Below, in pieces: positions 10,717 to 32,000 of a DNA stretch of 32,000 bases. How positions within the stretch are numbered: the stretch's first letter is position 1; each line of letters opens with the position of its first letter. Position numbers and translations under genes: made by a program. Origin of the DNA: Sinorhizobium meliloti (GTDB taxonomy: Bacteria > Pseudomonadota > Alphaproteobacteria > Rhizobiales > Rhizobiaceae); NCBI RefSeq assembly GCF_017876815.1, contig NZ_JAGIOS010000004.1, forward strand, positions 180,001 through 212,000, written 5' to 3'. Below the pieces are notes generated by a model that did not search any database, had not been told where the DNA came from, and saw nothing but the letters and a program-made list of their open reading frames with translations.

Positions 10717-10756
10717 AAAACCCACCGCTCTTGCATGGGACGAGCGACCGGTTTTC
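10717..10756 (-). terminator. weak hairpin plus T-run, possible intrinsic terminator after the ParB-like gene
   Basis: cccaccgctc (10721-10730) and gagcgaccgg (10742-10751) can form a 5-bp core stem (ccgctc/gagcg region) with imperfect extension. The stem is flanked by aaaa (10717-10720) and tttt (10752-10755). It starts 26 nt past the stop at 10778. The stem is short, so this is a low-confidence call. Confidence 0.2.
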
Positions 10757-10777
10757 AGTCGGAATTCGCACCACCCT

Positions 10778-11179
10778 TCAGGAACCATTGTCCCGATCAT
10801 ATCCGAGATCACTCAATGGGATTTTACATTCGGGGAACTGAGAGTCGAAGACATGTTTGGTTGTCTTGGCAGGGAACTTCCGTCCGCTCCTAGCCATAGC
10901 CAAAATGATCTCAGGAGTAACTACCTCTCCCAAACGCCAAGCTTCTACCCGAACACCGCGGTAGTCCAGTAACATTGCTGGCAATATCCTCAATTGAAGC
11001 CGCTTGGCGACAGCCAGTCTATGATGGCCATCCATTACGAAAAGCTCTCCCTTATGGACTGCAATTGGAGTCTTCCAGAATTTGGCTTGGAGAATCTCTT
11101 CTTCAAGCTCAAGAACTTGTCGGCAATCAACCTCTTCCGTCGGAGTCAAATCGTTGGGCTGTAAGAGATAGTAGCGCAT
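10778..11179 (-). CDS. small ParB/sulfiredoxin (Srx)-fold domain protein
   Basis: 133 aa. LQPNDLTPTEEV...PIAVHKGELFVMDGHHRLAVAKRLQLRILPAMLL matches the ParB N-terminal/Srx domain layout (L.PTE ... PI.V ... DGHHR ... A..LG...IP). GGAGG lies ~10 nt before the ATG. Confidence 0.6.
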   Translation of the reverse strand: MRYYLLQPNDLTPTEEVDCRQVLELEEEILQAKFWKTPIAVHKGELFVMDGHHRLAVAKRLQLRILPAMLLDYRGVRVEAWRLGEVVTPEIILAMARSGRKFPAKTTKHVFDSQFPECKIPLSDLGYDRDNGS

Positions 11180-11336
11180 TCGAGTATAACCTCCGGTAGT
11201 AAAATACCTAATGTGTAGCCGGAACCTCGATTACTTAGTGATGGCGTGCGAAGGTCCGACGGATCGCGCAGGATCAAAGACGAATAAAGCTTCTTCATTC
11301 CGGCCTGCCTTTTCCAAGCTCCGGCGATGATGCAGA

Positions 11337-12872
11337 TCACTCTCTGGTGAGGAAGGCGACTTTTTCCAAGACCAGCAGACTTCGATCGAACAAATGCTTC
11401 ATGCCTCGTTCGCCTGCGTTGATCGCTTCCACAATCAGGCGTGCACTAAGGCAAAGCCGCAACGCGGCAACCTGGACGCCCTCAAGCTCGCCGCAAGGAA
11501 CCGGTTGTCCAACTTCGCAACGAACTGACAACATTGAGTCACCGGGCGTCTTGGCTTTCACGGTCGAATCCTGGCACAAATGATCGTAGATCCTCTTGGT
11601 CTGCGGGACAGCCACCGGATTTCTCCCCGCACGTCGACATACGTGAAACAGTATAAAAGGAAAAATTGTCGGTAGTTCGTCCCAAGAATTGTGAGTGACG
11701 GGCAGATGGCGTTGTAAGGTCGGTTGCTCTAACAGCTGAAAATTAGGCGCATTGTTCAGCCAGGAGGTAACCTCCTTATGAAAGTCAAACACGACGCTTT
11801 GGACATCTTCCTCTGAAACACTACGGAAAGCACGCAACTCCACGAGCGCAGCTTCCCACCGCAAAAGTAAACCAAAATTACTGGCTTCCGGGAGTGACTG
11901 AGCGCCTGCCCAATTTCGTGGCCAGTCTGCCCGGCAAGACTTCGCTCCTGGTATAGGGTGTAGTGGCCGTTTCTTCAAACGGCACGCCAGCGACTCAGGA
12001 ACCAAGAGCATTGCCGAAAAGGCTGGACCTCCCAAAAACTTGGATCCAGTAACTATCACCAAGCAGCCGATGGTAAGGTAGGTTTGCAGCGTCTTCGGTG
12101 CCAATCGAAATTGAGATGCATCGATGAGAATTTCAACACTATCGCGCCAGCGACGCTTCAAATCCAGCGCCTTGCTCGGAGTTGGAGCCAGTACGCCGGT
12201 TTTCGAAACGTCAGTCAACACAATCAAAATACGACTGTACCGCGTTATCGCAGCCGATACTATTGCCTCAAGCTCATCATCGACGGCCGCAATGGGGCGG
12301 AGACGGGCACCTTCCATGCGAACTGCTATCGATCTAACATCAATTGGATCGGCTGGATTAACCCTTATTCCACCACTCTCGCGGTGCGGAGAATGCATAC
12401 CGCCAGCCAGAGCATGACCGATCCCACTCCCCGTCTCCTCCGATTGGACCATAATTGCCAATGTCTTTGCGACGGCGCTTCCTGCGACCAATTTGGAGGC
12501 GAGCATGTGAGCGTCGGTGCCAGAAGGGGAAACGATGAGTTCTAGCCCTTGAATATGCTCCAAACCGCATAAGCCAATGAATTCGGTGCGAAGTCTGTCG
12601 ATCTCTTCTAGATAAAGTTCTTCCGGTGCCCGTCCATGCAAGGTCTGCAATATCCTTTGGCGTAGTTTTTCCGCAGCTGAGAATCCGATGTCAGAAATCG
12701 TAGATGCGGTCGCGGAACCAAATGAGAATATTTCCCGGTCGGGAAGTGGTTTACGACCGTACTTATTTGTCATTTGACCAGCATCAAGTTCGATCCGCTC
12801 GTCACCCCCCAAGGTTAACAACTCAGCGGTCGAAGGAAGGTGAGTATTCAGGTGGGATAGCCGCTCTGTCAT
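11337..12872 (-). CDS. fold-type I PLP-dependent enzyme, aminotransferase class V / cysteine-desulfurase-like
   Basis: 511 aa with [11 protein letters not shown], then IDASQFRL, then [19 protein letters not shown]. The D..Q to Lys spacing (~26 residues) matches class V enzymes, and the Lys in GSKF is the presumed PLP lysine. Its ATG overlaps the NRPS stop (ATGA at 12869-12872). My hand count for 11641-11740 gives 45% GC. Confidence 0.55.
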
Positions 12873-15800
12873 TTGACATCCAGATTTCTGTTCGGGTGGG
12901 TAGTCGGCGAATTGTTTAAGGCTGCTGACAGTTGGCGCGCCAAGACCCGCCGGTTTTCCGGAACAGCCATCATCGTCACGTGATCGCCTGGAACGGGCAC
13001 AGCCTGGATAAACTCCGCGCCCAAAATTCGATCCCAGCCGCGCATTGGTGAACTTGCGTCCGGCCCTGCCGGAAGTCGCGCCCCTCGGCTAAAAGAGTGC
13101 TCCAGAGCATAAAATTGGTGCACGCTGACTGGCAGTGATGGCATCTCATACGAATGCACAGCTTGGTGAAATTGCGCGTATCTGATGGCGTCATAGTAGA
13201 GATCTGGTCTACCGACGACCGCACCGATTTGTCGCGCTTTCTCAAACAACTGCTCAACGGAACTCTGCCCGGCCGATTGGCGCAGCACCTCGAACCCCTC
13301 ATCACCCAGCGACTCCAGAGGTTCAAAGATCATTTGCAAAGCGATTTCTGTATCCGTCATCGCAGGCGACATCGCCGGGATTGGCACATCGATGAATGCC
13401 ATAAATGAAACCGTTTCTTCCAGATTGAGCAGGCGCTCGGCGAGCGCATACGCCAGTACAGCCCCAGAGGAATACCCGGCAAATCGATATGGTCCCCGTG
13501 GCTGCACTTTGCGTACTGCGTGCGCTACTTTTGTTGCAATCTCTTCAAGGCTTGCTCGACGAGCTTCCTCAAATGGCGGCCAAGGCAAAGCGTAGACATG
13601 GCAATCTATGTCCATCTCTCTGACTAAGCGGAACACATATGAGCAGTCGCCATAACCTGTCGGAACAAAGAAGACTGGCGCTTGCGACCCTATCGTGCGA
13701 ACCGGTAGCACACCGGGTGTATAATGGGATGAGTCCAACTCGATCTTCGGAGCGAGGTCTTTGAGGATCGGGGCATCAAAAATGCTGCTGGCGCTGACCT
13801 TCATCCCAAGGGCTAACGCTTGGGCGAGCACGCGCACCGCCAACAATGAGTGGCCGCCGAGTTCGAAGAAGTTGTCGTGGCGCCCGACCTGCTCGACGCC
13901 GAGAAGCTCGGCCCAGATCCCGGCCAGCAGCGTCTCGATCTCGCCCTGCGGCGCCTCGTAGGCCCGACGCGCATAGGCATCGTCGTCGGGGACCGGCAGC
14001 GCCTTGCGGTCGAGCTTGCCGTTCACCGTCAGCGGCAGTGCATCCAGCCGCACGAAGGCCGACGGCACCATGTAGTCCGGTAGCAGGCCACCCAGATGCG
14101 CCCGCAACGACGCAGCAAGCCCGGCGCCATCGGCTTCGGCCGACCCGTCCGTCGTCTTCGCAACCACATAGGCGACGAGCCGCTTGTCGCCCGCCGCATC
14201 CGCGTGCGCCACCACCGCGGCATCGCCGACAAGCTCATGCTCCAGCAGCCGGGCGGCGATCTCGCCCGGCTCGATGCGGAAGCCGCGGATCTTCACCTGG
14301 TCGTCATTGCGGCCCAGAAACTCGAGATTGCCGTCCGGCAGGTAGCGCGCCAGGTCGCCGCTCCGGTACATCCGGGCGCCGGCCTTGCCGCTGAACCGAT
14401 CCGCCAGGAACCGCTCCGCCGTCAGATCCGGACGGTTCAGGTAGCCGCGCGCCACCCCCGCCCCGCCGATATAAAGCTCACCAACCGCCCCAAACGGGAC
14501 GGGTGCGCCATGACCGTCAAGCACATAAAGCCGCGTGTTCGCAATCGGACGGCCGATCGGCACATACCGGTGAGGCGCCTCAATTCTCGTGTCGGTAAGA
14601 AAGGTGGTCGCCCAAATCGTAGTCTCCGTCGGACCATAAAGATTTCTGAGAGATTTTACCCTTCTGCCGAGGTTCGAGGCCAGTTCTGAAGGCAACGCTT
14701 CGCCGCCACACAACGCACTTAAATCGGGCGCACCCTCCCAGCCGGCGTCGAAGAGCATACGCCACGCCGCGGGGGTCGCCTGCATCACAGTTATCTTCTG
14801 ATGGGATAGATACCGCTGTAATCCAATAACACTGGTTCCGTGAGCAACAACGACGTTAGCTCCCACGGCCAGTGGCAGATAGAGTTCCAGCCCCGCAATG
14901 TCGAAAGAGATCGTCGTGATCGCGAGGAGTGAATCGCGCTCTGTGAGGCCCGATACATCTAAAAGAGCGCGTAGAACATTGAGAACACTTGCATGCTCGA
15001 CCATGACGCCCTTAGGCGTGCCGGTGGATCCCGATGTGTAGATGACATAGGCGAGATTGCGGGCTGTCAGGCCGAGGGCATGCGGGTCGGGATCGTCAGC
15101 GGACTGGTCGGCCCAAGCGGGCATGGCCGCATCGAGATCGACCGCGCTCAGATCGGCGATTGCCTCGGCGCCCAACGCCGCGCGGCCGGCGGCGTCGCAA
15201 AGCAGCAGCCGCGGGCCGGCATCGTCGAGCAACTGCCGCAGCCGTTCGCCGGGATAGGCCGGGTCGAGCGGCACATAGGCGCCGCCGGCCTTGAGGATCG
15301 CCAGCAGTCCCACCACCATCGCCGGGCTGCGCTCGACGCAGATCGCCACTGGCTGGTCCGGCCTCACCCCGAGCCCGATCAGATGATGGGCCAGCCGGTT
15401 GGCATCGGCATTGAGCGCGCCATAGGAGATCGACTGCTCTTCGAAGACCAGTGCGACCGCGTCGGGCACCCGGCGCACCTGCGCCTCGAACAGCGCATGC
15501 ACGCAAAGATCCGACGGATAGTCCGCTTCCGTCCGGTTCAACTCCTCCAGCAGGTAGCTGCGCTCCTCAGCCGGAAGAATGTCGAGCTCGCGCACCGGCC
15601 TATCGGGCGCTTGCTCCAGCGCGTCGACCAGTTGCTCGAGCGCCCGCTGCATATAGCCGCAGATCCGATCGGCGGAGATCGGTTCGACCGCATCCGCCGT
15701 GAGCCCCAGCTCCTGACCAAAATCATCCACCGACAATGTCAGCGGGTAGTTGGTCCGTTCCTCGTCCCCCAGCCATTCCATGCCGGACAGCACGTCGCTT

Positions 15801-18800
15801 GTTCCCTCGCCGGCCATGGCCGGCGTGTTGTGGCGATAGTTCAGCAGCGCACTGAACAGTGGCGCTGGTGCGGCAATATCGCTGCAGCGTTGCGCCAATG
15901 CCAGCGAGGCATGCTCGTGTGAGAGCAATTCGGCCAGACGGGCGTGGGCGATACGCACACTTTCCTCGACCCCGGTCTCATCCAGATCCAGCCGCAACGG
16001 CAAGGTATTCATGAACAAGCCCATGGCACGGTCGGCGCCGGCACCCGCATGCATGCGGCCGAACAGCACCGTGCCGAACACCACCTGCTCGCGCCCGCTG
16101 CTCAGCGCCACCACCTGGGCCCAGGCCAGATGGCAAAGGCTAGCCAGACTCACCCCCAGCCGCCGCGCCTGGTGGCGCAGCCGATCGTTGAGCGCCTGCG
16201 GCAGCATCCGCCGTGCCTCGCGGGATCCGCGGCCGTCGCCGTAGACCTCGCTCAGAGCGAACGGCAGGGTCGGCTCGTCGATGTCGGCCAGCATCTCCCG
16301 GAAGAACGCTTCATGCGCTTTGGCATCCATGCCAAGCCGCGCCTGCGCCACCAGGTTGCGGAACGGCTGCGGCGCTGCAAGCTCATGCGCGCGCCCCTGC
16401 AGCACGGCCCGGACCTCGGCATGCATCACTTCGGCCGTCGTATGATCGCCGATCAGATGGTGCTGCAACACCAAAAGCAGCCAGCGCCCACTGCCCGGTT
16501 CGCGCGCGATCACGAACCGCATCAGCGGCGCCCGGCCAAGGTCGAGACGGTACTGGCGCGGATCGAACCGCCGCCTGAGCTCATCGGCGCCGGAACCATC
16601 ACAGCCCTCCAGCTCGACCTCGAGCACATCCAAGGCCGCCTTGCGCCAGACAACCTGCGCCGGGCTCGACAGACCCTCCCAGACAAAGGCCGTGCGCAGA
16701 ATGTCGTGGCGGTCGACCACCTGTTGAACCGCAGCAAGGTAGCGATCGAGCACACCCCGCTCGGCAAAGGCCATCTGCGACATCAGGAGATAGGGGTCAC
16801 CCTGGGTTGCCAGCAAATGATGGAACAGAATGCCGTCCTGCAGCGGCGACAGGCCATAGATATCCTGGATATTGCCGACGCCGCCGGGCACCGTCGACAC
16901 GATCCGGTCGATCTCCGGTTGGGTAAGATCGATCAGCGGCAGCATCTGCGGCGTGATCGCCGTACTCTGTTCCGTGATCGGGTTGGCAGGCACCGCCACC
17001 TCCCGGTGGCTGCCAAGACTGGCGGCCAGATCGGCAAGCATCGGCTTTGCAAATACGGTGCGAACCTCGACCCCGAGCGACAGCCGCCGCAGACGCTCCA
17101 TCATTTGAACGGCCAACAATGAGTGGCCGCCGAGCTCGAAGAAGTTGTCGTGGCGCCCGACCTGCTCGACGCCGAGAAGCTCGGCCCAGATCCCGGCCAG
17201 CAGCGTCTCGATCTCGCCCTGCGGCGCCTCGTAGGCCCGACGCGCATAGGCATCGTCGTCGGGGACCGGCAGCGCCTTGCGGTCGAGCTTGCCGTTCACC
17301 GTCAGCGGCAGTGCATCCAGCCGCACGAAGGCCGACGGCACCATGTAGTCCGGTAGCAGGCCACCCAGATGCGCCCGCAACGACGCAGCAAGCCCGGCGC
17401 CATCGGCTTCGGCCGACCCGTCCGTCGTCTTCGCAACCACATAGGCGACGAGCCGCTTGTCGCCCGCCGCATCCGCGTGCGCCACCACCGCGGCATCGCC
17501 GACAAGCTCATGCTCCAGCAGCCGGGCGGCGATCTCGCCCGGCTCGATGCGGAAGCCGCGGATCTTCACCTGGTCGTCATTGCGGCCCAGAAACTCGAGA
17601 TTGCCGTCCGGCAGGTAGCGCGCCAGGTCGCCGCTCCGGTACATCCGGGCGCCGGCCTTGCCGCTGAACGGATCCGCCAGGAACCGCTCCGCCGTCAGAT
17701 CCGGACGGTTCAGGTAGCCGCGCGCCACCCCCGCCCCGCCGATATAAAGCTCACCAACCGCCCCAAACGGAACCGGCTGACCATGGCCGTCAAGCACATA
17801 AAGCCGCGTGTTCGCAATCGGACGGCCGATATGTGGCACAGCGTCACTGAAGAGCTGTCCCGACGTTGCCACCACAGTAACTTCCGTAGGACCATAGTTG
17901 TTTATTAACTTGAGAGGCGACGGTAGCCGGGAAGGCACACGCTGCAGACGATCACCGCCAATAAGCAAGTACTCCAACAAGGGAGTTACCAGCTCGCCTT
18001 CCAATGCCGTTGCAGCCAGCGGCGTGACTAAAAAGGCGGCGTCCAGTGGTTGATCACGCCACCATTGCAGGAGAAGCAGAGGATCTCCTGCTGCCGGTCT
18101 GGGTGGGAGCAGCAATGTGCTGCGATTGTATAATGCAGACCATAACTCCCAAGCGCTGGCATCGAATGCCACTCCAGCCGTGAGTGTGCAGCAGGTTTCT
18201 GGTTGCGGACAAAATGTTTGCACATGCCATGCTGTGAGATTGACCAGGCTTTGATGCTCGACCATGACGCCCTTAGGCGTGCCGGTGGATCCCGATGTGT
18301 AGATGACATAGGCGAGATTGCGGGCTGTCAGGCCGAGGGCATGCGGGTCGGGATCGTCAGCGGACTGGTCGGCCCAGGCGGGCATGGCCGTATCGAGATC
18401 GACCGCGCTCAGATCGGCGATTGCCTCGGCGCCCAACGCCGCGCGACCGGCGGCGTCGCAAAGCAGCAGCCGCGGGCCGGCATCGTCGAGCAACTGCCGC
18501 AGCCGTTCGCCGGGATAGGCCGGGTCGAGCGGCACATAGGCGCCGCCGGCCTTGAGGATCGCCAGCAGTCCCACCACCATCGCCGGGCTGCGCTCGACGC
18601 AGATCGCCACTGGCTGGTCCGGCCTCACCCCGAGCCCGATCAGATGATGGGCCAGCCGGTTGGCATCGGCATTGAGCGCGCCATAGGAGATCGACTGCTC
18701 TTCGAAGACCAGTGCGACCGCGTCGGGCACCCGGCGCACCTGCGCCTCGAACAGCGCATGCACGCAAAGATCCGACGGATAGTCCGCTTCCGTCCGGTTC

Positions 18801-21800
18801 AACTCCTCCAGCAGGTAGCTGCGCTCCTCAGCCGGAAGAATGTCGAGCTCGCGCACCGGCCTATCGGGCGCTCGCTCCAGCGCGTCGACCAGTTGCTCGA
18901 GCGCCCGCTGCATATAGCCGCAGATCCGATCGGCGGAGATCGGTTCGACCGCATCCGCCGTGAGCCCCAGCTCCTGACCAAAATCATCCACCGACAATGT
19001 CAGCGGGTAGTTGGTCCGTTCCTCGCCCCCCAGCCATTCCATGCCGGACAGCACGTCGCTTGTTCCCTCGCCGGCCATGGCCGGCGTGTTGTGGCGATAG
19101 TTCAGCAGCGCACTGAACAGTGGCGCTGGTGCGGCAATATCGCTGCAGCGTTGCGCCAATGCCAGCGAGGCATGCTCGTGTGAGAGCAATTCGGCCAGAC
19201 GGGCGTGGGCGATACGCACACTTTCCTCGACCCCGGTCTCATCCAGATCCAGCCGCAACGGCAAGGTATTCATGAACAAGCCCATGGCACGGTCGGCGCC
19301 GGCACCCGCATGCATGCGGCCGAACAGCACCGTGCCGAACACCACCTGCTCGCGCCCGCTGCTCAGCGCCACCACCTGGGCCCAGGCCAGATGGCAAAGG
19401 CTAGCCAGACTCACCCCCAGCCGCCGCGCCTGGTGGCGCAGCCGATCGTTGAGCGCCTGCGGCAGCATCCGCCGTGCCTCGCGGGATCCGCGGCCGTCGC
19501 CGTAGACCTCGCTCAGAGCGAACGGCAGGGTCGGCTCGTCGATGTCGGCCAGCATCTCCCGGAAGAACGCTTCATGCGCTTTGGCATCCATGCCAAGCCG
19601 CGCCTGCGCCACCAGGTTGCGGAACGGCTGCGGCGCTGCAAGCTCATGCGCGCGCCCCTGCAGCACGGCCCGGACCTCGGCATGCATCACTTCGGCCGTC
19701 GTATGATCGCCGATCAGATGGTGCTGCAACACCAAAAGCAGCCAGCGCCCACTGCCCGGTTCGCGCGCGATCACGAACCGCATCAGCGGCGCCCGGCCAA
19801 GGTCGAGACGGTACTGGCGCGGATCGAACCGCCGCCTGAGCTCATCGGCGCCGGAACCATCACAGCCCTCCAGCTCGACCTCGAGCACATCCAAGGCCGC
19901 CTTGCGCCAGACAACCTGCGCCGGGCTCGACAGACCCTCCCAGACAAAGGCCGTGCGCAGAATGTCGTGGCGGTCGACCACCTGTTGAACCGCAGCAAGG
20001 TAGCGATCGAGCACACCCCGCTCGGCAAAGGCCATCTGCGACATCAGGAGATAGGGGTCACCCTGGGTTGCCAGCAAATGATGGAACAGAATGCCGTCCT
20101 GCAGCGGCGACAGGCCATAGATATCCTGGATATTGCCGACGCCGCCGGGCACCGTCGACACGATCCGGTCGATCTCCGGTTGGGTAAGATCGATCAGCGG
20201 CAGCATCTGCGGCGTGATCGCCGTACTCTGTTCCGTGATCGGGTTGGCAGGCACCGCCACCTCCCGGTGGCTGCCAAGACTGGCGGCCAGATCGGCAAGC
20301 ATCGGCTTTGCAAATACGGTGCGAACCTCGACCCCGAGCGACAGCCGCCGCAGACGCTCCATCATTTGAACGGCCAACAATGAGTGGCCGCCGAGTTCGA
20401 AGAAGTTGTCGTGGCGCCCGACCTGCTCGACGCCGAGAAGCTCGGCCCAGATCCCGGCCAGCAGCGTCTCGATCTCGCCCTGCGGCGCCTCGTAGGCCCG
20501 ACGCGCATAGGCATCGTCGTCGGGGACCGGCAGCGCCTTGCGATCGAGCTTGCCGTTCACCGTCAGCGGCAGTGCATCCAGCCGCACGAAGGCCGACGGC
20601 ACCATGTAGTCCGGTAGCAGGCCACCCAGATGCGCCCGCAACGACGCAGCAAGCCCGGCGCCATCGGCTTCGGCCGACCCGTCCGTCGTCTTCGCAACCA
20701 CATAGGCGACGAGCCGCTTGTCGCCCGCCGCATCCGCGTGCGCCACCACCGCGGCATCGCCGACAAGCTCATGCTCCAGCAGCCGGGCGGCGATCTCGCC
20801 CGGCTCGATGCGGAAGCCGCGGATCTTCACCTGGTCGTCATTGCGGCCCAGAAACTCGAGATTGCCGTCCGGCAGGTAGCGCGCCAGGTCGCCGCTCCGG
20901 TACATCCGGGCGCCGGCCTTGCCGCTGAACCGATCCGCCAGGAACCGCTCCGCCGTCAGATCCGGACGGTTCAGGTAGCCGCGCGCCACCCCCGCCCCGC
21001 CGATATAAAGCTCACCAACCGCCCCAAACGGAACCGGCTGACCATGGCCGTCAAGCACATAAAGCCGCGTGTTCGCAATCGGACGGCCGATCGGCACATT
21101 CGTCGATGCGGAAAGATCTGCAGGGATGTCATGGAAAGCACAACCGACAACCGCTTCCGTCGGGCCATACTCGTTGACCATTCTAGCCGCCGGCTGGATC
21201 TGACGCCATAGCTCGACCGTCGAAGACGACAATGCCTCACCGCCAATGACGAGCACCTCCACCTGACTGGCATCTCCAGCCGACTGCAGTTGCTGTCCAA
21301 GAACATCCAGATGGCTCGGGGTGACATTGACCAGCCCGCACGGTGTGCCGACCCTTGACCTGATCCCCTCGACCTCGTCCCCCTCTTTCGTAAGCAATGC
21401 ATGGCCGCCAGAGACCAAAGGCGCAAACAGGCTGTTGACCGTGGCATCGAAGGCGAGCGAAGAGGAGACGACGGATGAGGATATGGGAGCGTAGCTCTCA
21501 CGAGCCCAGCTTAGATAATTGGTCATCCCGCGATGCTCGACCATGACGCCCTTAGGCGTGCCGGTGGATCCCGATGTGTAGATGACATAGGCGAGATTGC
21601 GGGCTGTCAGGCCGAGGGCATGCGGGTCGGGATCGTCAGCGGACTGGTCGGCCCAGGCGGGCATGGCCGTATCGAGATCGACCGCGCTCAGATCGGCGAT
21701 TGCCTCGGCGCCCAACGCCGCGCGACCGGCGGCGTCGCAAAGCAGCAGCCGCGGGCCGGCATCGTCGAGCAACTGCCGCAGCCGTTCGCCGGGATAGGCC

Positions 21801-24800
21801 GGGTCGAGCGGCACATAGGCGCCGCCGGCCTTGAGGATCGCCAGCAGTCCCACCACCATCGCCGGGCTGCGCTCGACGCAGATCGCCACTGGCTGGTCCG
21901 GCCTCACCCCGAGCCCGATCAGATGATGGGCCAGCCGGTTGGCATCGGCATTGAGCGCGCCATAGGAGATCGACTGCTCTTCGAAGACCAGTGCGACCGC
22001 GTCGGGCACCCGGCGCACCTGCGCCTCGAACAGCGCATGCACGCAAAGATCCGACGGATAGTCCGCTTCCGTCCGGTTCAACTCCTCCAGCAGGTAGCTG
22101 CGCTCGTCGGGAGGCAGGATGTCCAGCTCGGACACCGGCTGCTCGGCATCGGCAAGCATCGCCCGCAGCAGCGCCAGCAGATAACCACATTGCCGCTCGA
22201 TCGTCGCCCGGTCGAACAACGCCGTCGCATAACCGAGAGTCCCGGCGATGGCCTCGCCCTGCTCTCCCAGGTTCAGTTCCAGATCGAACTTGACCTGATC
22301 GAGCCCCTCGCCCGCAGCCTCCACCTGCAGCCCCGGCAGGTCCAATGACCCGCCGGTGTTGTTCTGCCAGGCCAGTCCCACCTGGAACAACGGCGTGTGA
22401 CCGAGAGCCCGGGGCGGCTGGACGATCTCCACCACCTGCTCGAACGGCAGGTCCTGATGATCCTGCGCAGTCAAGGCCGCGCGCCGCGCCCGTTCCAGGA
22501 GATCGGACACGCTCGGCTCGCCCGACAGATCGATTCGAACCGCCAGGGTGTTGACGAAGAAACCGATTAGATCCTCGATCTCGCGGCGACGACGATTGGC
22601 CGTCGGCACACCGATCACGATATCGTCCTGCCCGGACAGGCGCGACAGCACCGCAGCCCAGGCCGCCAGCACTGTCATGAACAACGTCGTGCCATGCTGC
22701 CGGCTCAGCCGCTTGAGCCCGCGCGTCAGAGCCTCATCGATGATAACCGGCACGCTGGCTCCGGCAAACGACTGCTGTGCCGGCCGCGGCCGGTCCGTCG
22801 GCAGCGCCAGACGGGCCGGGGCGCCAGACAGGGTGTCGCGCCAATACTGCGCCTGACGCTGCAGCCGCTCGCCGGACAACCATTGCCGTTGCCAGGCGGC
22901 ATAATCCGGATACTGGATCGCCAGCGGCGGCAAAGGATCGTCCTCTCCAGCCTCAAACGCGCGGTAAAGGCTGCTGAGCTCGCGCACCAGCACCCCCATC
23001 GACCAGCCGTCCGAGACTATGTGATGCTGCGTCAGCAGAAAGACGTGCTCCTCATCCGCCAGCCGGATCAGCCGGCCGCGGATCAGCGGCTCGCGCGCCA
23101 GATCGAACGGCGTGCGCGCCTCTTCTTGGCACAGATCCAAAAGCGCGGCTTGCGCATCCGGCCTGTCCCGCAGATCGTGCTCGACCACCGGCAATCCCCT
23201 GTCCCCGGACAAAATCTGGACCTGCGGGTCATCCTCTCCGGCGACGAACGTGCAGCGCAGCGCCTCGTGACGGGCAAACAGGCGGTCAAGGCTGCGCCGC
23301 CAGGCGACACGGTCGAGTCTGCCCTGCAGTCGCCACCCCAGGGGAATGTTATAGTTCGTGCTGTCTTCGTCCAACTGTGCCAAGAACCAGAGACGCTGCT
23401 GCGAATAGGACAGCGGAAGCGCACCATCACGTCCGACTGGCATGATGACCGGTGCTGTCTGCGCACCAGAACCGTTCAGCACTTCGCCAACACTTAGCGC
23501 CAAATCGGCCAATGTTGGCTTGGCGAACAGGATCGCCAGCGGCAGCTCCACTGCCAAGGCCTCGGTCAGCCGGACGAGCACGCGCACCGCCAACAATGAG
23601 TGGCCGCCGAGCTCGAAGAAGTTGTCGTGGCGCCCGACCTGCTCGACGCCGAGAAGCTCGGCCCAGATCCCGGCCAGCAGCGTCTCGATCTCGCCCTGCG
23701 GCGCCTCGTAGGCCCGACGCGCATAGGCATCGTCGTCGGGGACCGGCAGCGCCTTGCGGTCGAGCTTGCCGTTCACCGTCAGCGGCAGTGCATCCAGCCG
23801 CACGAAGGCCGACGGCACCATGTAGTCCGGTAGCAGGCCACCCAGATGCGCCCGCAACGACGCAGCAAGCCCGGCGCCATCGGCTTCGGCCGACCCGTCC
23901 GTCGTCTTCGCAACCACATAGGCGACGAGCCGCTTGTCGCCCGCCGCATCCGCGTGCGCCACCACCGCGGCATCGCCGACAAGCTCATGCTCCAGCAGCC
24001 GGGCGGCGATCTCGCCCGGCTCGATGCGGAAGCCGCGGATCTTCACCTGGTCGTCATTGCGGCCCAGAAACTCGAGATTGCCGTCCGGCAGGTAGCGCGC
24101 CAGGTCGCCGCTCCGGTACATCCGGGCGCCGGCCTTGCCGCTGAACGGATCCGCCAGGAACCGCTCCGCCGTCAGATCCGGACGGTTCAGGTAGCCGCGC
24201 GCCACCCCCGCCCCGCCGATATAAAGCTCACCAACCGCCCCAAACGGAACCGGCTGACCATGGCCGTCAAGCACATAAAGCCGCGTGTTCGCAATCGGAC
24301 GGCCGATCGGCACATTCGTCGATGCGGAAAGATCTGCAGGGATGTCATGGAAAGCACAACCGACAACCGCTTCCGTCGGGCCATACTCGTTGACCATTCT
24401 AGCCGCCGGCTGGATCTGACGCCATAGCTCGACCGTCGAAGACGACAATGCCTCACCGCCAATGACGAGCACCTCCACCTGACTGGCATCTCCAGCCGAC
24501 TGCAGTTGCTGTCCAAGAACATCCAGATGGCTCGGGGTGATTTTGACCAGGCTGCGGCCTAAGCCAAGCTCTACCTTAAGGTTTTCGGTTTCATTTCGGT
24601 TGGATATGAGATGTTCCTGCGCACCACAGATTAGAGGCGCGAACAGGCTGGTAATCGTGGCATCGAAGGCGAGCGAAGAGGAGACGACGGATGAGGATAT
24701 GGGAGCGTAGCTCTCACGAGCCCAGCTTAGATAATTGGTCATCCCGCGATGCTCGACCATGACGCCCTTAGGCGTGCCGGTGGATCCCGATGTGTAGATG

Positions 24801-27800
24801 ACATAGGCGAGATTGCGGGCTGTCAGGCCGAGGGCATGCGGGTCGGGATCGTCAGCGGACTGGTCGGCCCAGGCGGGCATGGCTGCATCGAGATCGACCG
24901 CGCTCAGATCGTCGATTGCCTCGGCGCCCAACGCCGCGCGGCCGGCGGCGTCGCAAAGCAGCAGCCGCGGGCCGGCATCGTCGAGCAACTGCCGCAGCCG
25001 TTCGCCGGGATAGGCCGGGTCGAGCGGCACATAGGCGCCGCCGGCCTTGAGGATCGCCAGCAGTCCCACCACCATCGCCGGGCTGCGCTCGACGCAGATC
25101 GCCACTGGCTGGTCCGGCCTCACCCCGAGCCCGATCAGATGATGGGCCAGCCGGTTGGCATCGGCATTGAGCGCGCCATAGGAGATCGACTGCTCTTCGA
25201 AGACCAGTGCGACCGCGTCGGGCACCCGGCGCACCTGCGCCTCGAACAGCGCATGCACGCAAAGATCCGACGGATAGTCCGCTTCCGTCCGGTTCAACTC
25301 CTCCAGCAGGTAGCTGCGCTCGTCGGGAGGCAGGATGTCCAGCTCGGACACCGGCTGCTCGGCATCGGCAAGCATCGCCCGCAGCAGCGCCAGCAGATAA
25401 CCACATTGCCGCTCGATCGTCGCCCGGTCGAACAACGCCGTCGCATAACCGAGAGTCCCGGCGATGGCCTCGCCCTGCTCTCCCAGGTTCAGTTCCAGAT
25501 CGAACTTGACCTGATCGAGCCCCTCGCCCGCAGCCTCCACCTGCAGCCCCGGCAGGTCCAATGACCCGCCGGTGTTGTTCTGCCAGGCCAGTCCCACCTG
25601 GAACAACGGCGTGTGACCGAGAGCCCGGGGCGGCTGGACGATCTCCACCACCTGCTCGAACGGCAGGTCCTGATGATCCTGCGCAGTCAAGGCCGCGCGC
25701 CGCGCCCGTTCCAGGAGATCGGACACGCTCGGCTCGCCCGACAGATCGATTCGAACCGCCAGGGTGTTGACGAAGAAACCGATTAGATCCTCGATCTCGC
25801 GGCGACGACGATTGGCCGTCGGCACACCGATCACGATATCGTCCTGCCCGGACAGGCGCGACAGCACCGCAGCCCAGGCCGCCAGCACTGTCATGAACAA
25901 CGTCGTGCCATGCTGCCGGCTCAGCCGCTTGAGCCCGCGCGTCAGAGCCTCATCGATGATAACCGGCACGCTGGCTCCGGCAAACGACTGCTGTGCCGGC
26001 CGCGGCCGGTCCGTCGGCAGCGCCAGACGGGCCGGGGCGCCAGACAGGGTGTCGCGCCAATACTGCGCCTGACGCTGCAGCCGCTCGCCGGACAACCATT
26101 GCCGTTGCCAGGCGGCATAATCCGGATACTGGATCGCCAGCGGCGGCAAAGGATCGTCCTCTCCAGCCTCAAACGCGCGGTAAAGGCTGCTGAGCTCGCG
26201 CACCAGCACCCCCATCGACCAGCCGTCCGAGACTATGTGATGCTGCGTCAGCAGAAAGACGTGCTCCTCATCCGCCAGCCGGATCAGCCGGCCGCGGATC
26301 AGCGGCTCGCGCGCCAGATCGAACGGCGTGCGCGCCTCTTCTTGGCACAGATCCAAAAGCGCGGCTTGCGCATCCGGCCTGTCCCGCAGATCGTGCTCGA
26401 CCACCGGCAATCCCCTGTCCCCGGACAAAATCTGGACCTGCGGGTCATCCTCTCCGGCGACGAACGTGCAGCGCAGCGCCTCGTGACGGGCAAACAGGCG
26501 GTCAAGGCTGCGCCGCCAGGCGACACGGTCGAGTCTGCCCTGCAGTCGCCACCCCAGGGGAATGTTATAGTTCGTGCTGTCTTCGTCCAACTGTGCCAAG
26601 AACCAGAGACGCTGCTGCGAATAGGACAGCGGAAGCGCACCATCACGTCCGACTGGCATGATGACCGGTGCTGTCTGCGCACCAGAACCGTTCAGCACTT
26701 CGCCAACACTTAGCGCCAAATCGGCCAATGTTGGCTTGGCGAACAGGATCGCCAGCGGCAGCTCCACTGCCAAGGCCTCGGTCAGCCGGACGAGCACGCG
26801 CACCGCCAACAATGAGTGGCCGCCGAGCTCGAAGAAGTTGTCGTGGCGCCCGACCTGCTCGACGCCGAGAAGCTCGGCCCAGATCCCGGCCAGCAGCGTC
26901 TCGATCTCGCCCTGCGGCGCCTCGTAGGCCCGACGCGCATAGGCATCGTCGTCGGGGACCGGCAGCGCCTTGCGATCGAGCTTGCCGTTCACCGTCAGCG
27001 GCAGTGCATCCAGCCGCACGAAGGCCGACGGCACCATGTAGTCCGGTAGCAGGCCACCCAGATGCGCCCGCAACGACGCAGCAAGCCCGGCGCCATCGGC
27101 TTCGGCCGACCCGTCCGTCGTCTTCGCAACCACATAGGCGACGAGCCGCTTGTCGCCCGCCGCATCCGCGTGCGCCACCACCGCGGCATCGCCGACAAGC
27201 TCATGCTCCAGCAGCCGGGCGGCGATCTCGCCCGGCTCGATGCGGAAGCCGCGGATCTTCACCTGGTCGTCATTGCGGCCCAGAAACTCGAGATTGCCGT
27301 CCGGCAGGTAGCGCGCCAGGTCGCCGCTCCGGTACATCCGGGCGCCGGCCTTGCCGCTGAACGGATCCGCCAGGAACCGCTCCGCCGTCAGATCCGGACG
27401 GTTCAGGTAGCCGCGCGCCACCCCCGCCCCGCCGATATAAAGCTCACCAACCGCCCCAAACGGAACCGGCTGACCATGGCCGTCCAGCAGATAGATCCGC
27501 GTGTTCGAGATCGGACGCCCGATCGTTTCGACAACAGCCTGTCCCCTCGGCATGCAAATCCAAGTCGAGTACGTCGTTGTCTCCGAAGGGGCGTACAGAT
27601 TGCAAATCTTCTGGACGCGCGTGCTCTCGAATATCCTCTCGATTAGGTCTGCCTTCACCCGCTCGCCCGCCAAATTGATGACGCTTGCCGATGCCGGCAC
27701 GGCTTTCTGGTTGACCAGAGCGGTGATCGCCGAGGGGACCGTGTTGATCAAGGAGGCATCCACGGGCGTTCGGGCCAGCTTCAGTGCATCCTCGACGAGG

Positions 27801-30800
27801 TACAGCTTGCTTCCCTGCGAAAGCGGAAGGAAACACTCGTAAACGGACAGATCAAAACAGACCGAGGTCGAGAACAGCGTGCGCCTGATCTCTGATTCGG
27901 CAAACACGCCGCCACTCCAATGCAGCAGGTTCACTGTGTTCCGATGCTCGACCATGACGCCCTTAGGCGTGCCGGTGGATCCCGATGTGTAGATGACATA
28001 GGCGAGATTGCGGGCTGTCAGGCCGAGGGCATGCGGGTCGGGATCGTCAGCGGACTGGTCGGCCCAGGCGGGCATGGCCGTATCGAGATCGACCGCGCTC
28101 AGATCGGCGATTGCCTCGGCGCCCAACGCCGCGCGACCGGCGGCGTCGCAAAGCAGCAGCCGCGGGCCGGCATCGTCGAGCAACTGCCGCAGCCGTTCGC
28201 CGGGATAGGCCGGGTCGAGCGGCACATAGGCGCCGCCGGCCTTGAGGATCGCCAGCAGTCCCACCACCATCGCCGGGCTGCGCTCGACGCAGATCGCCAC
28301 TGGCTGGTCCGGCCTCACCCCGAGCCCGATCAGATGATGGGCCAGCCGGTTGGCATCGGCATTGAGCGCGCCATAGGAGATCGACTGCTCTTCGAAGACC
28401 AGTGCGACCGCGTCGGGCACCCGGCGCACCTGCGCCTCGAACAGCGCATGCACGCAAAGATCCGACGGATAGTCCGCTTCCGTCCGGTTCAACTCCTCCA
28501 GCAGGTAGCTGCGCTCGTCGGGAGGCAGGATGTCCAGCTCGGACACCGGCTGCTCGGCATCGGCAAGCATCGCCCGCAGCAGCGCCAGCAGATAACCACA
28601 TTGCCGCTCGATCGTCGCCCGGTCGAACAACGCCGTCGCATAACCGAGAGTCCCGGCGATGGCCTCGCCCTGCTCTCCCAGGTTCAGTTCCAGATCGAAC
28701 TTGACCTGATCGAGCCCCTCGCCCGCAGCCTCCACCTGCAGCCCCGGCAGGTCCAATGACCCGCCGGTGTTGTTCTGCCAGGCCAGTCCCACCTGGAACA
28801 ACGGCGTGTGACCGAGAGCCCGGGGCGGCTGGACGATCTCCACCACCTGCTCGAACGGCAGGTCCTGATGATCCTGCGCAGTCAAGGCCGCGCGCCGCGC
28901 CCGTTCCAGGAGATCGGACACGCTCGGCTCGCCCGACAGATCGATTCGAACCGCCAGGGTGTTGACGAAGAAACCGATTAGATCCTCGATCTCGCGGCGA
29001 CGACGATTGGCCGTCGGCACACCGATCACGATATCGTCCTGCCCGGACAGGCGCGACAGCACCGCAGCCCAGGCCGCCAGCACTGTCATGAACAACGTCG
29101 TGCCATGCTGCCGGCTCAGCCGCTTGAGCCCGCGCGTCAGAGCCTCATCGATGATAACCGGCACGCTGGCTCCGGCAAACGACTGCTGTGCCGGCCGCGG
29201 CCGGTCCGTCGGCAGCGCCAGACGGGCCGGGGCGCCAGACAGGGTGTCGCGCCAATACTGCGCCTGACGCTGCAGCCGCTCGCCGGACAACCATTGCCGT
29301 TGCCAGGCGGCATAATCCGGATACTGGATCGCCAGCGGCGGCAAAGGATCGTCCTCTCCAGCCTCAAACGCGCGGTAAAGGCTGCTGAGCTCGCGCACCA
29401 GCACCCCCATCGACCAGCCGTCCGAGACTATGTGATGCTGCGTCAGCAGAAAGACGTGCTCCTCATCCGCCAGCCGGATCAGCCGGCCGCGGATCAGCGG
29501 CTCGCGCGCCAGATCGAACGGCGTGCGCGCCTCTTCTTGGCACAGATCCAAAAGCGCGGCTTGCGCATCCGGCCTGTCCCGCAGATCGTGCTCGACCACC
29601 GGCAATCCCCTGTCCCCGGACAAAATCTGGACCTGCGGGTCATCCTCTCCGGCGACGAACGTGCAGCGCAGCGCCTCGTGACGGGCAAACAGGCGGTCAA
29701 GGCTGCGCCGCCAGGCGACACGGTCGAGTCTGCCCTGCAGTCGCCACCCCAGGGGAATGTTATAGTTCGTGCTGTCTTCGTCCAACTGTGCCAAGAACCA
29801 GAGACGCTGCTGCGAATAGGACAGCGGAAGCGCACCATCACGTCCGACTGGCATGATGACCGGTGCTGTCTGCGCACCAGAACCGTTCAGCACTTCGCCA
29901 ACACTTAGCGCCAAATCGGCCAATGTTGGCTTGGCGAACAGGATCGCCAGCGGCAGCTCCACTGCCAAGGCCTCGGTCAGCCGGACGAGCACGCGCACCG
30001 CCAACAATGAGTGGCCGCCGAGCTCGAAGAAGTTGTCGTGGCGCCCGACCTGCTCGACGCCGAGAAGCTCGGCCCAGATCCCGGCCAGCAGCGTCTCGAT
30101 CTCGCCCTGCGGCGCCTCGTAGGCCCGACGCGCATAGGCATCGTCGTCGGGGACCGGCAGCGCCTTGCGGTCGAGCTTGCCGTTCACCGTCAGCGGCAGT
30201 GCATCCAGCCGCACGAAGGCCGACGGCACCATGTAGTCCGGTAGCAGGCCACCCAGATGCGCCCGCAACGACGCAGCAAGCCCGGCGCCATCGGCTTCGG
30301 CCGACCCGTCCGTCGTCTTCGCAACCACATAGGCGACGAGCCGCTTGTCGCCCGCCGCATCCGCGTGCGCCACCACCGCGGCATCGCCGACAAGCTCATG
30401 CTCCAGCAGCCGGGCGGCGATCTCGCCCGGCTCGATGCGGAAGCCGCGGATCTTCACCTGGTCGTCATTGCGGCCCAGAAACTCGAGATTGCCGTCCGGC
30501 AGGTAGCGCGCCAGGTCGCCGCTCCGGTACATCCGGGCGCCGGCCTTGCCGCTGAACGGATCCGCCAGGAACCGCTCCGCCGTCAGATCCGGACGGTTCA
30601 GGTAGCCGCGCGCCACCCCCGCCCCGCCGATATAAAGCTCACCAACCGCCCCAAACGGAACCGGCTGACCATGACCGTCCAGAAGATAGATCCGAAGATC
30701 CGGAATCCGTTCGCCGATCGGACCGCATGAGCTGGACGTATCAGACTTGTTAAGAAGCCGATAGGTCACATGCACAGTCGTCTCTGTGATGCCGTACATG

Positions 30801-32000
30801 TTGATCAGCCGTGGGGCATGCTCACAATGCCGTTCGAACCACGGCTTAAGAGAGGAAGGCTCCAGGGCCTCGCCTCCAAAAATCAAATAGCGAAGCTGGT
30901 TGCGAACTCCACTCTCACGCTCGGCTTCGATCAGAGCTTTAAACGCCGAGGGCGTCTGGTTGAGCACCGTGGCGCTTGACTTGCAAACCAGCGTATAAAA
31001 GTCGGGAGCAGAGCGAGCTATATGCTCCGGTACGAGAACCAGACGGCCACCACAGTGGAGCGCTCCCCACAACTCCCAAACCGAGAAGTCGAATGAGAAA
31101 GAATGAAACAGGCACCAGACATCGCGCTCGTTGAAATCGTACCAGCTCCGCGTCGCCTCAAACAAACGGACAATTTGCGCATGCTCGACCATGACGCCCT
31201 TAGGCGTGCCGGTGGATCCCGATGTGTAGATGACATAGGCGAGATTGCGGGCTGTCAGGCCGAGGGCATGCGGGTCGGGATCGTCAGCGGACTGGTCGGC
31301 CCAGGCGGGCGTGGCCGCATCGAGATCGACCGCGCTCAGATCGTCGATTGCCTCGGCGCCCAACGCCGCGCGGCCGGCGGCGTCGCAAAGCAGCAGCCGC
31401 GGGCCGGCATCGTCGAGCAACTGCCGCAGCCGTTCGCCGGGATAGGCCGGGTCGAGCGGCACATAGGCGCCGCCGGCCTTGAGGATCGCCAGCAGTCCCA
31501 CCACCATCGCCGGGCTGCGCTCGACGCAGATCGCCACTGGCTGGTCCGGCCTCACCCCGAGCCCGATCAGATGATGGGCCAGCCGGTTGGCATCGGCATT
31601 GAGCGCGCCATAGGAGATCGACTGCTCTTCGAAGACCAGTGCGACCGCGTCGGGCACCCGGCGCACCTGCGCCTCGAACAGCGCATGCACGCAAAGATCC
31701 GACGGATAGTCCGCTTCCGTCCGGTTCAACTCCTCCAGCAGGTAGCTGCGCTCGTCGGGAGGCAGGATGTCCAGCTCGGACACCGGCTGCTCGGCATCGG
31801 CAAGCATCGCCCGCAGCAGCGCCAGCAGATAACCACATTGCCGCTCGATCGTCGCCCGGTCGAACAACGCCGTCGCATAACCGAGAGTCCCGGCGATGGC
31901 CTCGCCCTGCTCTCCCAGGTTCAGTTCCAGATCGAACTTGACCTGATCGAGCCCCTCGCCCGCAGCCTCCACCTGCAGCCCCGGCAGGTCCAATGACCCG
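12869..32000 (-). CDS. non-ribosomal peptide synthetase, 3' portion (>=6374 codons): ...C-A-T-C-A-T-C-A-T-C-A-T-C'-A-T-C'-A-T-TE; 5' end outside the window
   Basis: A single uninterrupted reading frame runs to the right window edge. The track 'M' at 31993 is an internal TTG Leu of the repeated ...[10 protein letters not shown]... motif, and the frame stays open through 32000. It contains six copies of the A-domain cores ([21 protein letters not shown], Nx[67 protein letters not shown]) and six [12 protein letters not shown] carrier motifs. It also has three complete [11 protein letters not shown] domains plus one partial, two HHLIGDH C domains, and a terminal GYSSG thioesterase. Confidence 0.97.
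12872..13700 (-). other. NRPS thioesterase (TE) domain (approximate bounds)
   Basis: [17 protein letters not shown]; the GxSxG nucleophile elbow [10 protein letters not shown] is encoded at ~13451-13479; a C-terminal [10 protein letters not shown] supplies the His. My hand count for 13141-13240 gives 51% GC, unlike the ~70% GC scaffold. Confidence 0.85.
13995..15564 (-). other. A domain 6 (last module), predicted Gly (approximate bounds)
   Basis: Code extracted by alignment to GrsA positions: [11 protein letters not shown] / MQATPAA / ALCGGEA / [13 protein letters not shown] / NGKLDRK gives DILQLGLIWK, identical to the classical Gly code. The unique cassette is ~14568-14992. Confidence 0.75.
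15574..16874 (-). other. C' domain (non-canonical His motif HHLIGDH; candidate dual epimerisation/condensation), copy 2
   Basis: N-terminal [26 protein letters not shown], with HHLLATQGD encoded at 16797-16823. The active-site [14 protein letters not shown] has HHLIGDH at 16442-16462. It is preceded by the variant carrier [23 protein letters not shown] and the linker [26 protein letters not shown]. Confidence 0.6.
17268..18825 (-). other. A domain 5, predicted Leu-like hydrophobic residue (approximate bounds)
   Basis: [11 protein letters not shown] / FLVTPLA / LLIGGDR / [13 protein letters not shown] gives DAWLLGNVVK, one position from the classical Leu code DAWFLGNVVK. The unique cassette is ~17831-18253. 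Confidence 0.6.
18835..20135 (-). other. C' domain (HHLIGDH type; candidate dual E/C), copy 1
   Basis: Same sequence as 15574-16874 shifted by 3261 bp, with HHLLATQGD at 20058-20084 and HHLIGDH at 19703-19723. Only two amino-acid differences are visible (WLGDEE vs WLGGEE, ALEQAP vs ALERAP). Confidence 0.6.
20529..22104 (-). other. A domain 4, unassigned specificity code DANNVGEVGK (approximate bounds)
   Basis: [11 protein letters not shown] / VNVTPSH / LVIGGEA / [13 protein letters not shown] gives DANNVGEVGK. It is identical to A domain 3 except for the 39-codon patch at 21325-21440, which changes code positions 239 and 278. Confidence 0.6.
22125..23420 (-). other. canonical C domain ([10 protein letters not shown]), copy 3 of 3 complete copies
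   Basis: [17 protein letters not shown] is encoded at ~23388-23420 and [14 protein letters not shown] at ~22995-23035. Copies at +3216 and +6411 bp give identical translations. Confidence 0.85.
23745..25320 (-). other. A domain 3, predicted Asn (approximate bounds)
   Basis: [11 protein letters not shown] / VKITPSH / LVIGGEA / [13 protein letters not shown] gives DATKVGEVGK, identical to the classical Asn code. Confidence 0.75.
25341..26636 (-). other. canonical C domain ([10 protein letters not shown]), copy 2
   Basis: Same translation as 22125-23420, shifted by 3216 bp. Confidence 0.85.
26961..28515 (-). other. A domain 2, predicted small residue (Ala-like), tentative
   Basis: VCFDLSVYE / INTVPSA / INLAGER / [13 protein letters not shown] gives DLYNNALTYK. 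The closest code I remember is DLFNNALTYK (Ala). The unique cassette is ~27485-27943. Confidence 0.45.
28536..29831 (-). other. canonical C domain ([10 protein letters not shown]), copy 1
   Basis: Same translation as 22125-23420, shifted by 6411 bp. Confidence 0.85.
30156..31752 (-). other. A domain 1 (first in window), predicted Thr
   Basis: FSFDFSVWE / LNQTPSAF / LIFGGEA / [13 protein letters not shown] gives DFWNIGMVHK, identical to the classical Thr code. The unique cassette is ~30672-31180. Confidence 0.75.
31773..32000 (-). other. C-terminal tail of a fourth canonical C domain (truncated by window edge)
   Basis: ...[60 protein letters not shown] matches the tails of the three complete canonical C domains. 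Confidence 0.8.

Follow-up and report, generated by a model that had tools for sequence, protein, structure and literature searches.

The engineering of adenylation (A) domains of nonribosomal peptide synthetases (NRPSs) proceeds without agreed minimal exchange units. Sub-domain swaps within the A core are reportedly the subject of studies on hormaomycin, on microcystin and on the flavodoxin-like subdomain (Crusemann 2013, Meyer 2016 and Kries 2015, as cited by Baunach et al. 2021). For the kahalalide NRPSs of Ca. Endobryopsis kahalalidifaciens, a distinction has been made between a specificity unit, from motif A3 to an extended A6, and a chirality unit, from T1 to a CA motif that lies ~28 amino acids before A1 and reads ELLETFNxTE(VA)YP, with the conserved linkers acting as recombination hotspots (Li et al. 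2024, PMC11428043). More generally, NRPSs are held to diversify chiefly through partial substitutions of the A core, the boundaries of which are diverse (Baunach et al. 2021, PMC8097286). Here we consider NRPS-B, an NRPS gene carried on a 32,000-nucleotide stretch of Sinorhizobium meliloti DNA (contig NZ_JAGIOS010000004.1, positions 180,001 to 212,000; hereafter the window). Its modules evolve in concert, and two neighbouring modules differ almost only in an island of 39 codons. We think it probable that gene conversion has eroded the divergence between them up to two jointly selected pocket residues, 239 and 278.

NRPS-B is the sole long open reading frame (ORF) from position 12869 to beyond 32000 on the minus strand; it is the second of two NRPS genes in its cluster, its 5' end runs beyond the window, and 6376 amino acids are visible. 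Pfam models for Condensation, AMP-binding, AMP-binding_C and PP-binding domains match the product repeatedly, and a thioesterase (TE) closes it, giving a visible layout of an A-T module (module 1; T, thiolation), four C-A-T modules (C, condensation) and a final C-A-T-TE module. All six visible A domains match PF00501 and PF13193, and their core motifs follow one another in order from A3 to A10. The whole gene is traversed by families of repeats, each with six copies that are 98-100% identical and spaced 3195-3279 nucleotides apart, and in protein alignment the six modules are ~99% identical except in two kinds of segment. The first is the specificity cassette of the A domain, which starts where motif A3 (..PKGVMVEH) ends and stops shortly before A6; the second is the T-to-C chirality unit, from the T-domain serine motif to ..ELDILP. 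The chirality units are of two types, one LCL-like and carrying HHIVSDG, the other carrying HHLLATQGD and HHLIGDH. The latter fits the second His motif, HH[I/L]xxxxGD, by which dual epimerization/condensation (E/C) domains are defined (PMC1894796), and the C domains of modules 5 and 6 are, by motif, predicted to be of this dual type.

NRPS-B resembles the kahalalide NRPSs (PMC11428043) in its unit boundaries at A3/extended A6 and T1/CA, in its near-identical CA-A3 and A6-T1 linkers, and in T-domain subtypes that track the type of the downstream C domain; both marks of a unit-and-linker organisation, the unit boundaries and concerted evolution, are found in the window gene. It differs from them in that homogenisation is far stronger, reaching ~99% DNA identity within one gene, in that dual E/C domains replace separate E domains, and in that the host is a rhizobial accessory plasmid. 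Moreover, the A core is treated as the smallest specificity unit there, whereas here one pair of cassettes can be resolved further, to a 39-residue island ending at two code residues.

The island distinguishes modules 3 and 4. The original prediction had described these as two units of equal length with about seven point differences outside a patch at 21325-21440 and 24541-24656, and this description holds. The units, 20375-23590 and 23591-26806, are each 3216 nucleotides long and align without gaps; 54 of their 61 differing positions fall within 21325-21439 (counterpart 24541-24655), and exactly seven lie outside it (20396, 20543, 20931, 21668, 21670, 21696 and 21725). The chance that at least 54 of 61 differences fall within 117 of 3216 nucleotides is ~7e-70. 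The two 39-residue peptides first given for the patch were also right, read on the minus strand, on which unit 23591-26806 (ITSLF...LVKI, DATKVGEVGK) is the upstream module and unit 20375-23590 (VNSLF...LVNV, DANNVGEVGK) the downstream one. Over ~1070 residues the two modules are identical save for 26 substitutions within 39 residues; at the nucleotide level their A-core cassettes mismatch at 0 of 135 and 0 of 327 positions in the flanks and at 54 of 117 in the patch. On the coding strand, the first differing codons are equivalent to residues 238/239 of PheA and the last to 278/279, and residues 240-245 (SLFAPL) are the same in both types.

Stachelhaus codes were extracted by anchoring on motifs, with rules that give canonical Thr, Cys and Gly codes for other modules; errors of the regular-expression extractor at positions 299/301 and 278 in some sequences were corrected by hand. 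As originally predicted, only two of the ten specificity positions differ between the modules, 239 and 278, and these sit at the extreme edges of the island, with D235, A236, V299, G301, E322, V330, G331 and K517 held in common. Canonical Asn-activating domains, for example Zmn A3/A4 of zeamine, have the code DATK[L/V]GEVGK (PMC3547906). Module 3 has the exact code DATKVGEVGK, which is tabulated as Asn (and DFWNIGMVHK as Thr) in PMC3547906, and agrees at 10 of 10 positions. Unlike canonical Asn domains (PMC3547906), module 4 has N239 and N278 and agrees at 8 of 10; the residue that it specifies is called X here. The original prediction could match this code to no assigned substrate, and no assignment was found here either: DANNVGEVGK, DANNIGEVGK and DANNLGEVGK were not found in the searched literature, and 'DANN' is absent from a compilation of 508 signatures. 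An AlphaFold2 model of the module 4 A core (mean predicted local distance difference test score, pLDDT, 61.7) was used in the cassette region only, where block means are 65-93. There, the X island is predicted to form a helix-strand-helix-strand element (helix 203-212, strand 216-219, helix 225-233, strand 237-242; block-mean pLDDT 71-86), in which residue 239 lies in the opening helix and residue 278 closes the final strand.

Compared with the A-core swaps described by Baunach et al. (PMC8097286), the pair is alike in that a divergent tract with pocket residues lies in the A core and the C-A linker, Asub and T interface are untouched. Within A3-A6, it presents what characterises a sub-domain swap, namely a divergent tract between near-identical flanks with pocket residues inside. 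It is unlike those swaps in that no donor was identified and in that the island amounts to only about one quarter of the A3-A6 cassette and carries 2 of the 10 code residues. Thus, where the original prediction saw a minimal swap that retargets an A domain, one 39-residue stretch does change two code positions, but the retargeting, although plausible, is something that we infer. The Asn/X pair is neat but not unprecedented: it is an elegant natural experiment, not a recent minimal swap that created a new code. What is unusual is the degree of homogenisation, an island that ends at two code residues, and a code widespread in rhizobia yet absent from the searched literature.

A history in which a 3216-bp unit was recently duplicated in tandem, and one copy then received a minimal sub-domain swap that made a new specificity from an Asn domain, is suggested by the equal length of the units, by the seven differences outside the patch, and by the alteration of 2 of 10 code positions. 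Comparison of modules and strains makes this history, which the original prediction had put forward, very improbable. The 3.2-kb period and the backbone are common to all six visible modules and extend beyond the two units. Outside the patch, the Asn and X modules of the same strain differ at 6 (window), 15 (WSM419) and 15 (AK21) of 3087 sites, whereas modules of the same type differ between strains at 45-74 of 3087 sites. The backbone therefore clusters by strain: a module is nearer to its paralogues in the same strain than to its orthologue in another. In the patch, grouping follows type, with 0-2 differences in 117 nucleotides within a type across S. meliloti and S. medicae and 54-55 in 117 between types. 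A backbone that groups by strain and a patch that groups by type show concerted evolution of the modules and not recency of duplication, and both patches are old and type-specific. Most of the differences outside the patch are variants common to other modules, in a mosaic pattern, and the window and the orthologous locus of ml46 differ at those same repeated polymorphic sites. Had the duplication been recent, the pair or the patch should be absent from sister lineages; instead, they are present in S. medicae, in AK21, and, as an Asn/X dimorphism, in S. kostiense, S. terangae and Ensifer sp. LCM 4579, with both patches near-invariant in other strains and species.

The same comparisons bear on the assembly. 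Assembly is difficult for 3.2-kb repeats that are 99% identical, and some drafts have fewer modules or broken ORFs. In short-read assemblies, relatives of these modules lie on 400-800-bp contigs holding the A-core cassette only, which implies the same repeat-collapsed architecture in those genomes. One of the two units might accordingly be a chimera, or mis-phased, from collapsed repeats. We give this next to no credence, since adjoining Asn and X modules, mismatched at 54-55 positions of the patch, are seen in each of four independent assemblies, namely the window, S. meliloti ml46 (CP140885.1), S. medicae WSM419 (NC_009622.1) and S. meliloti AK21 (NZ_CP026528.1), with two complete S. meliloti plasmids among the carriers. 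Exact copies of the patch DNA are found in several further assemblies.

The A-domain clade to which both modules belong occurs in many rhizobia, as judged from fragment proteins and a genome scan. When 75 cassettes, some of them redundant sequences, were classed by positions 239 and 278, there were 44 T/K, 20 N/N, 9 T/D, 1 T/E and 1 S/K, and no N/K or T/N hybrid was found among the 75. The N/N organisms comprise Sinorhizobium and Ensifer species, Rhizobium ruizarguesonis, R. calliandrae, Mesorhizobium abyssinicae, Bradyrhizobium manausense, B. cenepequi, Paraburkholderia mimosarum and Burkholderia sp. JPY481; all carriers are from legume-nodulating groups, among both alpha- and beta-rhizobia, and at least five rhizobial genera are represented. 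The outgroups (Luteibacter, Herbaspirillum, Noviherbaspirillum, Acidobacteria and others) are all T/K, so that T/K is ancestral and N/N derived but old, far older than this gene copy. N239 and N278 are invariant in N/N cassettes down to 67% whole-cassette identity with module 4 of the window, and the pairs N239/N278 and T239/K278 are each invariant across genera. DANN is also the commonest cassette in the assembly lines examined, at 4-6 copies per line. Against N/N patches from other genera, the window X patch shows 59-77% identity, in keeping with its flanks (67-77%). The DANN code is therefore old and widespread in rhizobia and was not, as first proposed, newly made in this gene.

The T/D class, with a code of approximately DATDIGEVGK, was seen in Ensifer aridi, S. 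kostiense, S. terangae, R. calliandrae, Bradyrhizobium and Mesorhizobium, and the T/E class in S. psoraleae. The resulting series of K, N, D and E at position 278 suggests a tuning of polarity or charge, and possibly substrates that differ in charge. Close relatives of the clade are almost only from legume-nodulating bacteria (Sinorhizobium, Rhizobium, Mesorhizobium, Bradyrhizobium, Paraburkholderia mimosarum and Burkholderia sp. JPY481).

In the case of the Asn patch, the relationship to the flanks is a different one. The Asn patch of the window is only 38-49% identical to other rhizobial T/K patches, against 68-76% for the flanks, and those other patches are 62-82% identical among themselves. 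The Asn patch is thus incongruent with its flanks and the X patch congruent. If either patch was imported, it would be the Asn patch, the phylogenetic outlier, and the direction first proposed, from Asn to DANN, is probably the reverse of the true one. Such an import could have been an old and precise swap in the Sinorhizobium/Ensifer ancestor, by which an Asn segment of ~39-43 residues from a distant A domain entered a resident X (N/N) cassette and restored the canonical Asn code, with no erosion involved. The confinement of the close relatives of the Asn patch to Sinorhizobium/Ensifer fits this history, as does base composition at first sight. Guanine-plus-cytosine (GC) content is 50.0% in the Asn patch and 61.2% in the X patch, within units of ~65.5%, and in codon alignment the Asn patch has 49.6% GC and 56% GC at third codon positions (GC3), against a GC3 of 74% for the multi-copy X patch. 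The disparity noted earlier (~63% against ~51%) was thus close to the measured values, but as evidence it is weak. In each of the six variable A-core cassettes, GC is lower than in the backbone (GC 54.6-58.9% and GC3 53-75%, against 65% and 77% for the whole gene), and low GC is normal for these patches in other rhizobia, patches of both types having ~50-53% GC in Bradyrhizobium and R. calliandrae. A foreign origin on grounds of GC was for these reasons rejected.

A donor for the Asn patch was sought with phmmer among 1.84 billion representative proteins; none was found, the best matches outside the genus being 45-62% identical at 50 bits or less, and a 55-residue query of the same patch gave three candidates only, from a search that apparently returns short fragment proteins only. 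No donor was identified for either patch, and the donor lineage that the original prediction expected a protein search to reveal did not appear. Neither does a single import give a reason for edges at 239 and 278, for the recurrence of the same bracket in R. calliandrae, or for a 3' edge that differs among strains. We therefore regard the old swap as unlikely, if by no means far-fetched, and erosion under concerted evolution explains the pattern better.

The erosion that we favour would proceed as follows. Modules would be continuously homogenised by ectopic homologous recombination or gene conversion, and only the function-specific parts, the A3-to-A6 specificity cassettes and the T1-to-CA chirality units, would escape. 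Since the Asn and X cassettes fall within the same A-domain clade, conversion tracts could enter the cassette and erase divergence from both sides, up to T239/K278 on the one hand and N239/N278 on the other. A tract ending between 239 and 278 would give a hybrid pocket, N/K or T/N. If these were selected against, the 37 codons in between would be shielded, and their deep divergence, synonymous sites included, would be kept. This mechanism accounts for edges at the code positions, for raggedness on the 3' side, for the lack of hybrids, for both invariant residue pairs, and for the bracket in R. calliandrae. The island does end at 239 and 278, hybrids are absent among the 75 cassettes, and the bracket recurs in another genus. 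Two R. calliandrae cassettes, one N/N and one T/K, share 92% identity in their flanks and have quite different patches; their nucleotide differences are dense over the same codons, 239-279 (two of the comparisons made alongside this one are invalid, as a one-residue indel shifts their register). From one strain or species to another, the 3' edge shifts by 2-5 codons, as expected for erosion. For instance, the Asn cassette has TPSQMD at this edge in WSM419 and AK21, the X cassette has TPIL in AK21 and R. ruizarguesonis, and S. kostiense, S. terangae and Ensifer sp. show TPTL versus TPSH.

Several points nevertheless weigh against this interpretation. The two domains might both still load Asn, and DANNVGEVGK, with 8 of 10 positions as in the Asn code, would probably be called Asn by predictors that work from the nearest code. 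The nucleotide identity of ~54% within the patch is in itself an obstacle to recombination, and the island could persist for a while in the absence of selection. A single precise swap in the Sinorhizobium/Ensifer ancestor would leave the same picture within that genus. In addition, the structural model is of low overall confidence, if better in the cassette, and redundancy affects the cassette counts. Taken furthest, these points lead to a neutral patch, with Asn activated by both domains and the island kept only by low identity that blocks recombination. The eight code positions held in common, E322 included, are compatible with neutrality, which we nonetheless consider quite unlikely. Conversion tracts that span the whole cassette do occur, the X cassettes being identical in 4-6 modules, yet a lone Asn patch survives, in the same relative place, in each of three divergent assembly lines. 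Each residue pair is invariant across genera without hybrids, and the T/D and T/E classes at position 278 point to functional tuning. Selection on the two sites thus presumably maintains the island, and modules 3 and 4 would, judging from their codes, load different amino acids.

If so, X may be a small polar residue, for example Gln, diaminobutyrate or diaminopropionate (Dab/Dap), or Ser, although this is a guess. A bolder proposition is that N239/N278 is a genuine non-Asn code that legume-nodulating bacteria alone possess and that recurs as many as six times in Cys/Gly-rich peptides of 14-16 residues encoded on accessory plasmids of legume symbionts, and that the switch from Asn to X consists of two epistatic pocket residues; this we hold tentatively, as possible but somewhat doubtful. 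Were it true, the 39-residue island would be a ready-made minimal exchange unit, and the locus would demonstrate directly that selection on two linked sites withstands gene conversion. In any case, modules 3 and 4 provide a clean experimental pair with which two residues can be tested against a whole helix-strand-helix-strand element. Concerted evolution can strip a megasynthetase to its information-bearing positions, which is of use in the search for specificity determinants by comparison alone. Coordinates of the modules, cassettes, islands and chirality units are collected in the table.

Table. Features of NRPS-B in the window (PheA numbering for code residues)
Feature	Position	Strand	Remarks
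Module 1 A-core cassette	30683..31180	-	code DFWNIGMVHK, Thr
Module 2 A-core cassette	27488..27943	-	code DLYNNALTYK, which we take to be of Cys type
Module 3 (unit B of the original prediction; module 13 of 16 in ml46)	23591..26806	-	code DATKVGEVGK, Asn
Module 3 A-core cassette (end of A3 to before A6)	24272..24748	-	same as module 4 cassette outside the island
Asn-type island	24539..24655	-	39 codons, PheA residues 238-279; T239 at 24650-24652, K278 at 24542-24544
Module 4 (unit A of the original prediction; module 14 of 16 in ml46)	20375..23590	-	code DANNVGEVGK, X; followed by a putative dual E/C C domain
Module 4 A-core cassette	21056..21532	-	
X-type island	21323..21439	-	39 codons, PheA residues 238-279; N239 at 21434-21436, N278 at 21326-21328
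Module 5 A-core cassette	17795..18253	-	code DAWLLGNVVK, Leu-like; one position off DAWFLGNVVK
Module 6 A-core cassette	14522..14992	-	code DILQLGLIWK, presumably Gly type
T1-to-CA chirality unit upstream of module 4 A domain	22130..23584	-	LCL-like (HHIVSDG)
Further LCL-like T1-to-CA units	25346-26800 and 28541-29995	-	
T1-to-CA unit downstream of module 4	18851..20368	-	dual E/C by motif (HHLLATQGD and HHLIGDH)
Second dual E/C T1-to-CA unit	15590-17107	-	
Terminal unit: end of last T domain and thioesterase	12872..13834	-	

Cassettes were extracted from three complete assembly lines, which have 16 (ml46), 16 (WSM419) and 14 (AK21) modules and different predicted peptides; the ml46 orthologue of NRPS-B is a protein of 6778 amino acids (CP140885.1, 126645-146981). 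For ml46, NRPS-A is predicted to specify X-X-X-Cys-Gly-Gly-Cys-Z-Gly-Cys and NRPS-B Thr-Cys-Asn-X-Leu-Gly; for WSM419, the corresponding predictions are X-X-X-Z-Cys-Cys-Gly-Cys and Cys-X-Thr-Asn-X-X-Leu-Gly, and for AK21, X-X-X-Gly-Cys-Z-Cys and Thr-Cys-Cys-Asn-X-Leu-Gly. Each line has one Asn patch, which in every case immediately precedes X-(X)-Leu-Gly-TE. In its variety the family resembles a combinatorial peptide library, one that would arise from unequal recombination between near-identical linkers. No paper was found in a literature search for this rhizobial/Sinorhizobium NRPS family. The locus draws attention to an unstudied family, so far seen only in legume-nodulating bacteria, that carries an unassigned code. 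Z denotes a seventh cassette type (FDGIVTT...LVKVTPSH, code DGTKMGHVGK), located in NRPS-A outside the window at module 8 of ml46, module 4 of WSM419 and module 6 of AK21; its code resembles Asp-type codes, and the match in Cupriavidus sp. UYMU48A is a relative of this cassette. One draft assembly appears to be one module short relative to the window. The higher GC of the homogenised parts could reflect GC-biased gene conversion instead of foreign cassettes. The closest solved structure to an A domain of NRPS-B is LgrA 6mfy (E 1.8e-211); the closest structural matches, LgrA and Txo2 among them, are generic A domains and were set aside as uninformative on substrate.

The cluster is arranged in the order LysR regulator, NRPS-A, NRPS-B, a 511-residue protein, a small ParB-N-like protein, a 249-residue protein, a SagB-family dehydrogenase and a phosphopantetheinyl transferase (PPTase), with the five genes 3' of NRPS-B at 8021-12872 of the window on the minus strand. 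The gene for the 511-residue protein is translationally coupled and its product, like the 249-residue protein, has no family match; the ParB-N-like protein, of 133 residues, has weak similarity to the ADP-dependent serine kinase SerK. The SagB-family dehydrogenase matches TIGR03605 at 87.5 bits, above the cut-off, and the PPTase is HetI-like. Every C domain has HH-type motifs and none is a heterocyclization (Cy) domain, although the predicted peptide is Cys-rich, an arrangement with which a SagB-type azoline oxidase sits oddly. The first module of NRPS-A starts with a C domain, and lipo-initiation is therefore possible.

The flanking genes are matched at 100% on the S. meliloti accessory plasmids CP140885.1 and CP140923.1 and at ~95% on S. 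medicae plasmids, pSMED03 of WSM419 included; a query with the downstream genes matches 38 Sinorhizobium/Rhizobium plasmid records, 13 of which hold at least 80% of it. The cluster sits in a variable region of conjugative accessory plasmids that is rich in insertion sequences (IS). A DDE_5 (IS701-like) transposase gene adjoins the PPTase gene in the window (6722-7936, minus strand), and the same place is occupied by an IS66 element in ml46 and CP140923 and by other IS elements in WSM419 and AK21. Further along, an indolepyruvate ferredoxin oxidoreductase-family gene (1163 amino acids) and a carboxyltransferase gene lie at 409-5357 on the minus strand; in ml46, these two are followed by genes for an HMG-CoA reductase, a biotin carboxylase and an MmgE/PrpD protein, and they may form a metabolic operon with no relation to the cluster or else supply an acyl starter.

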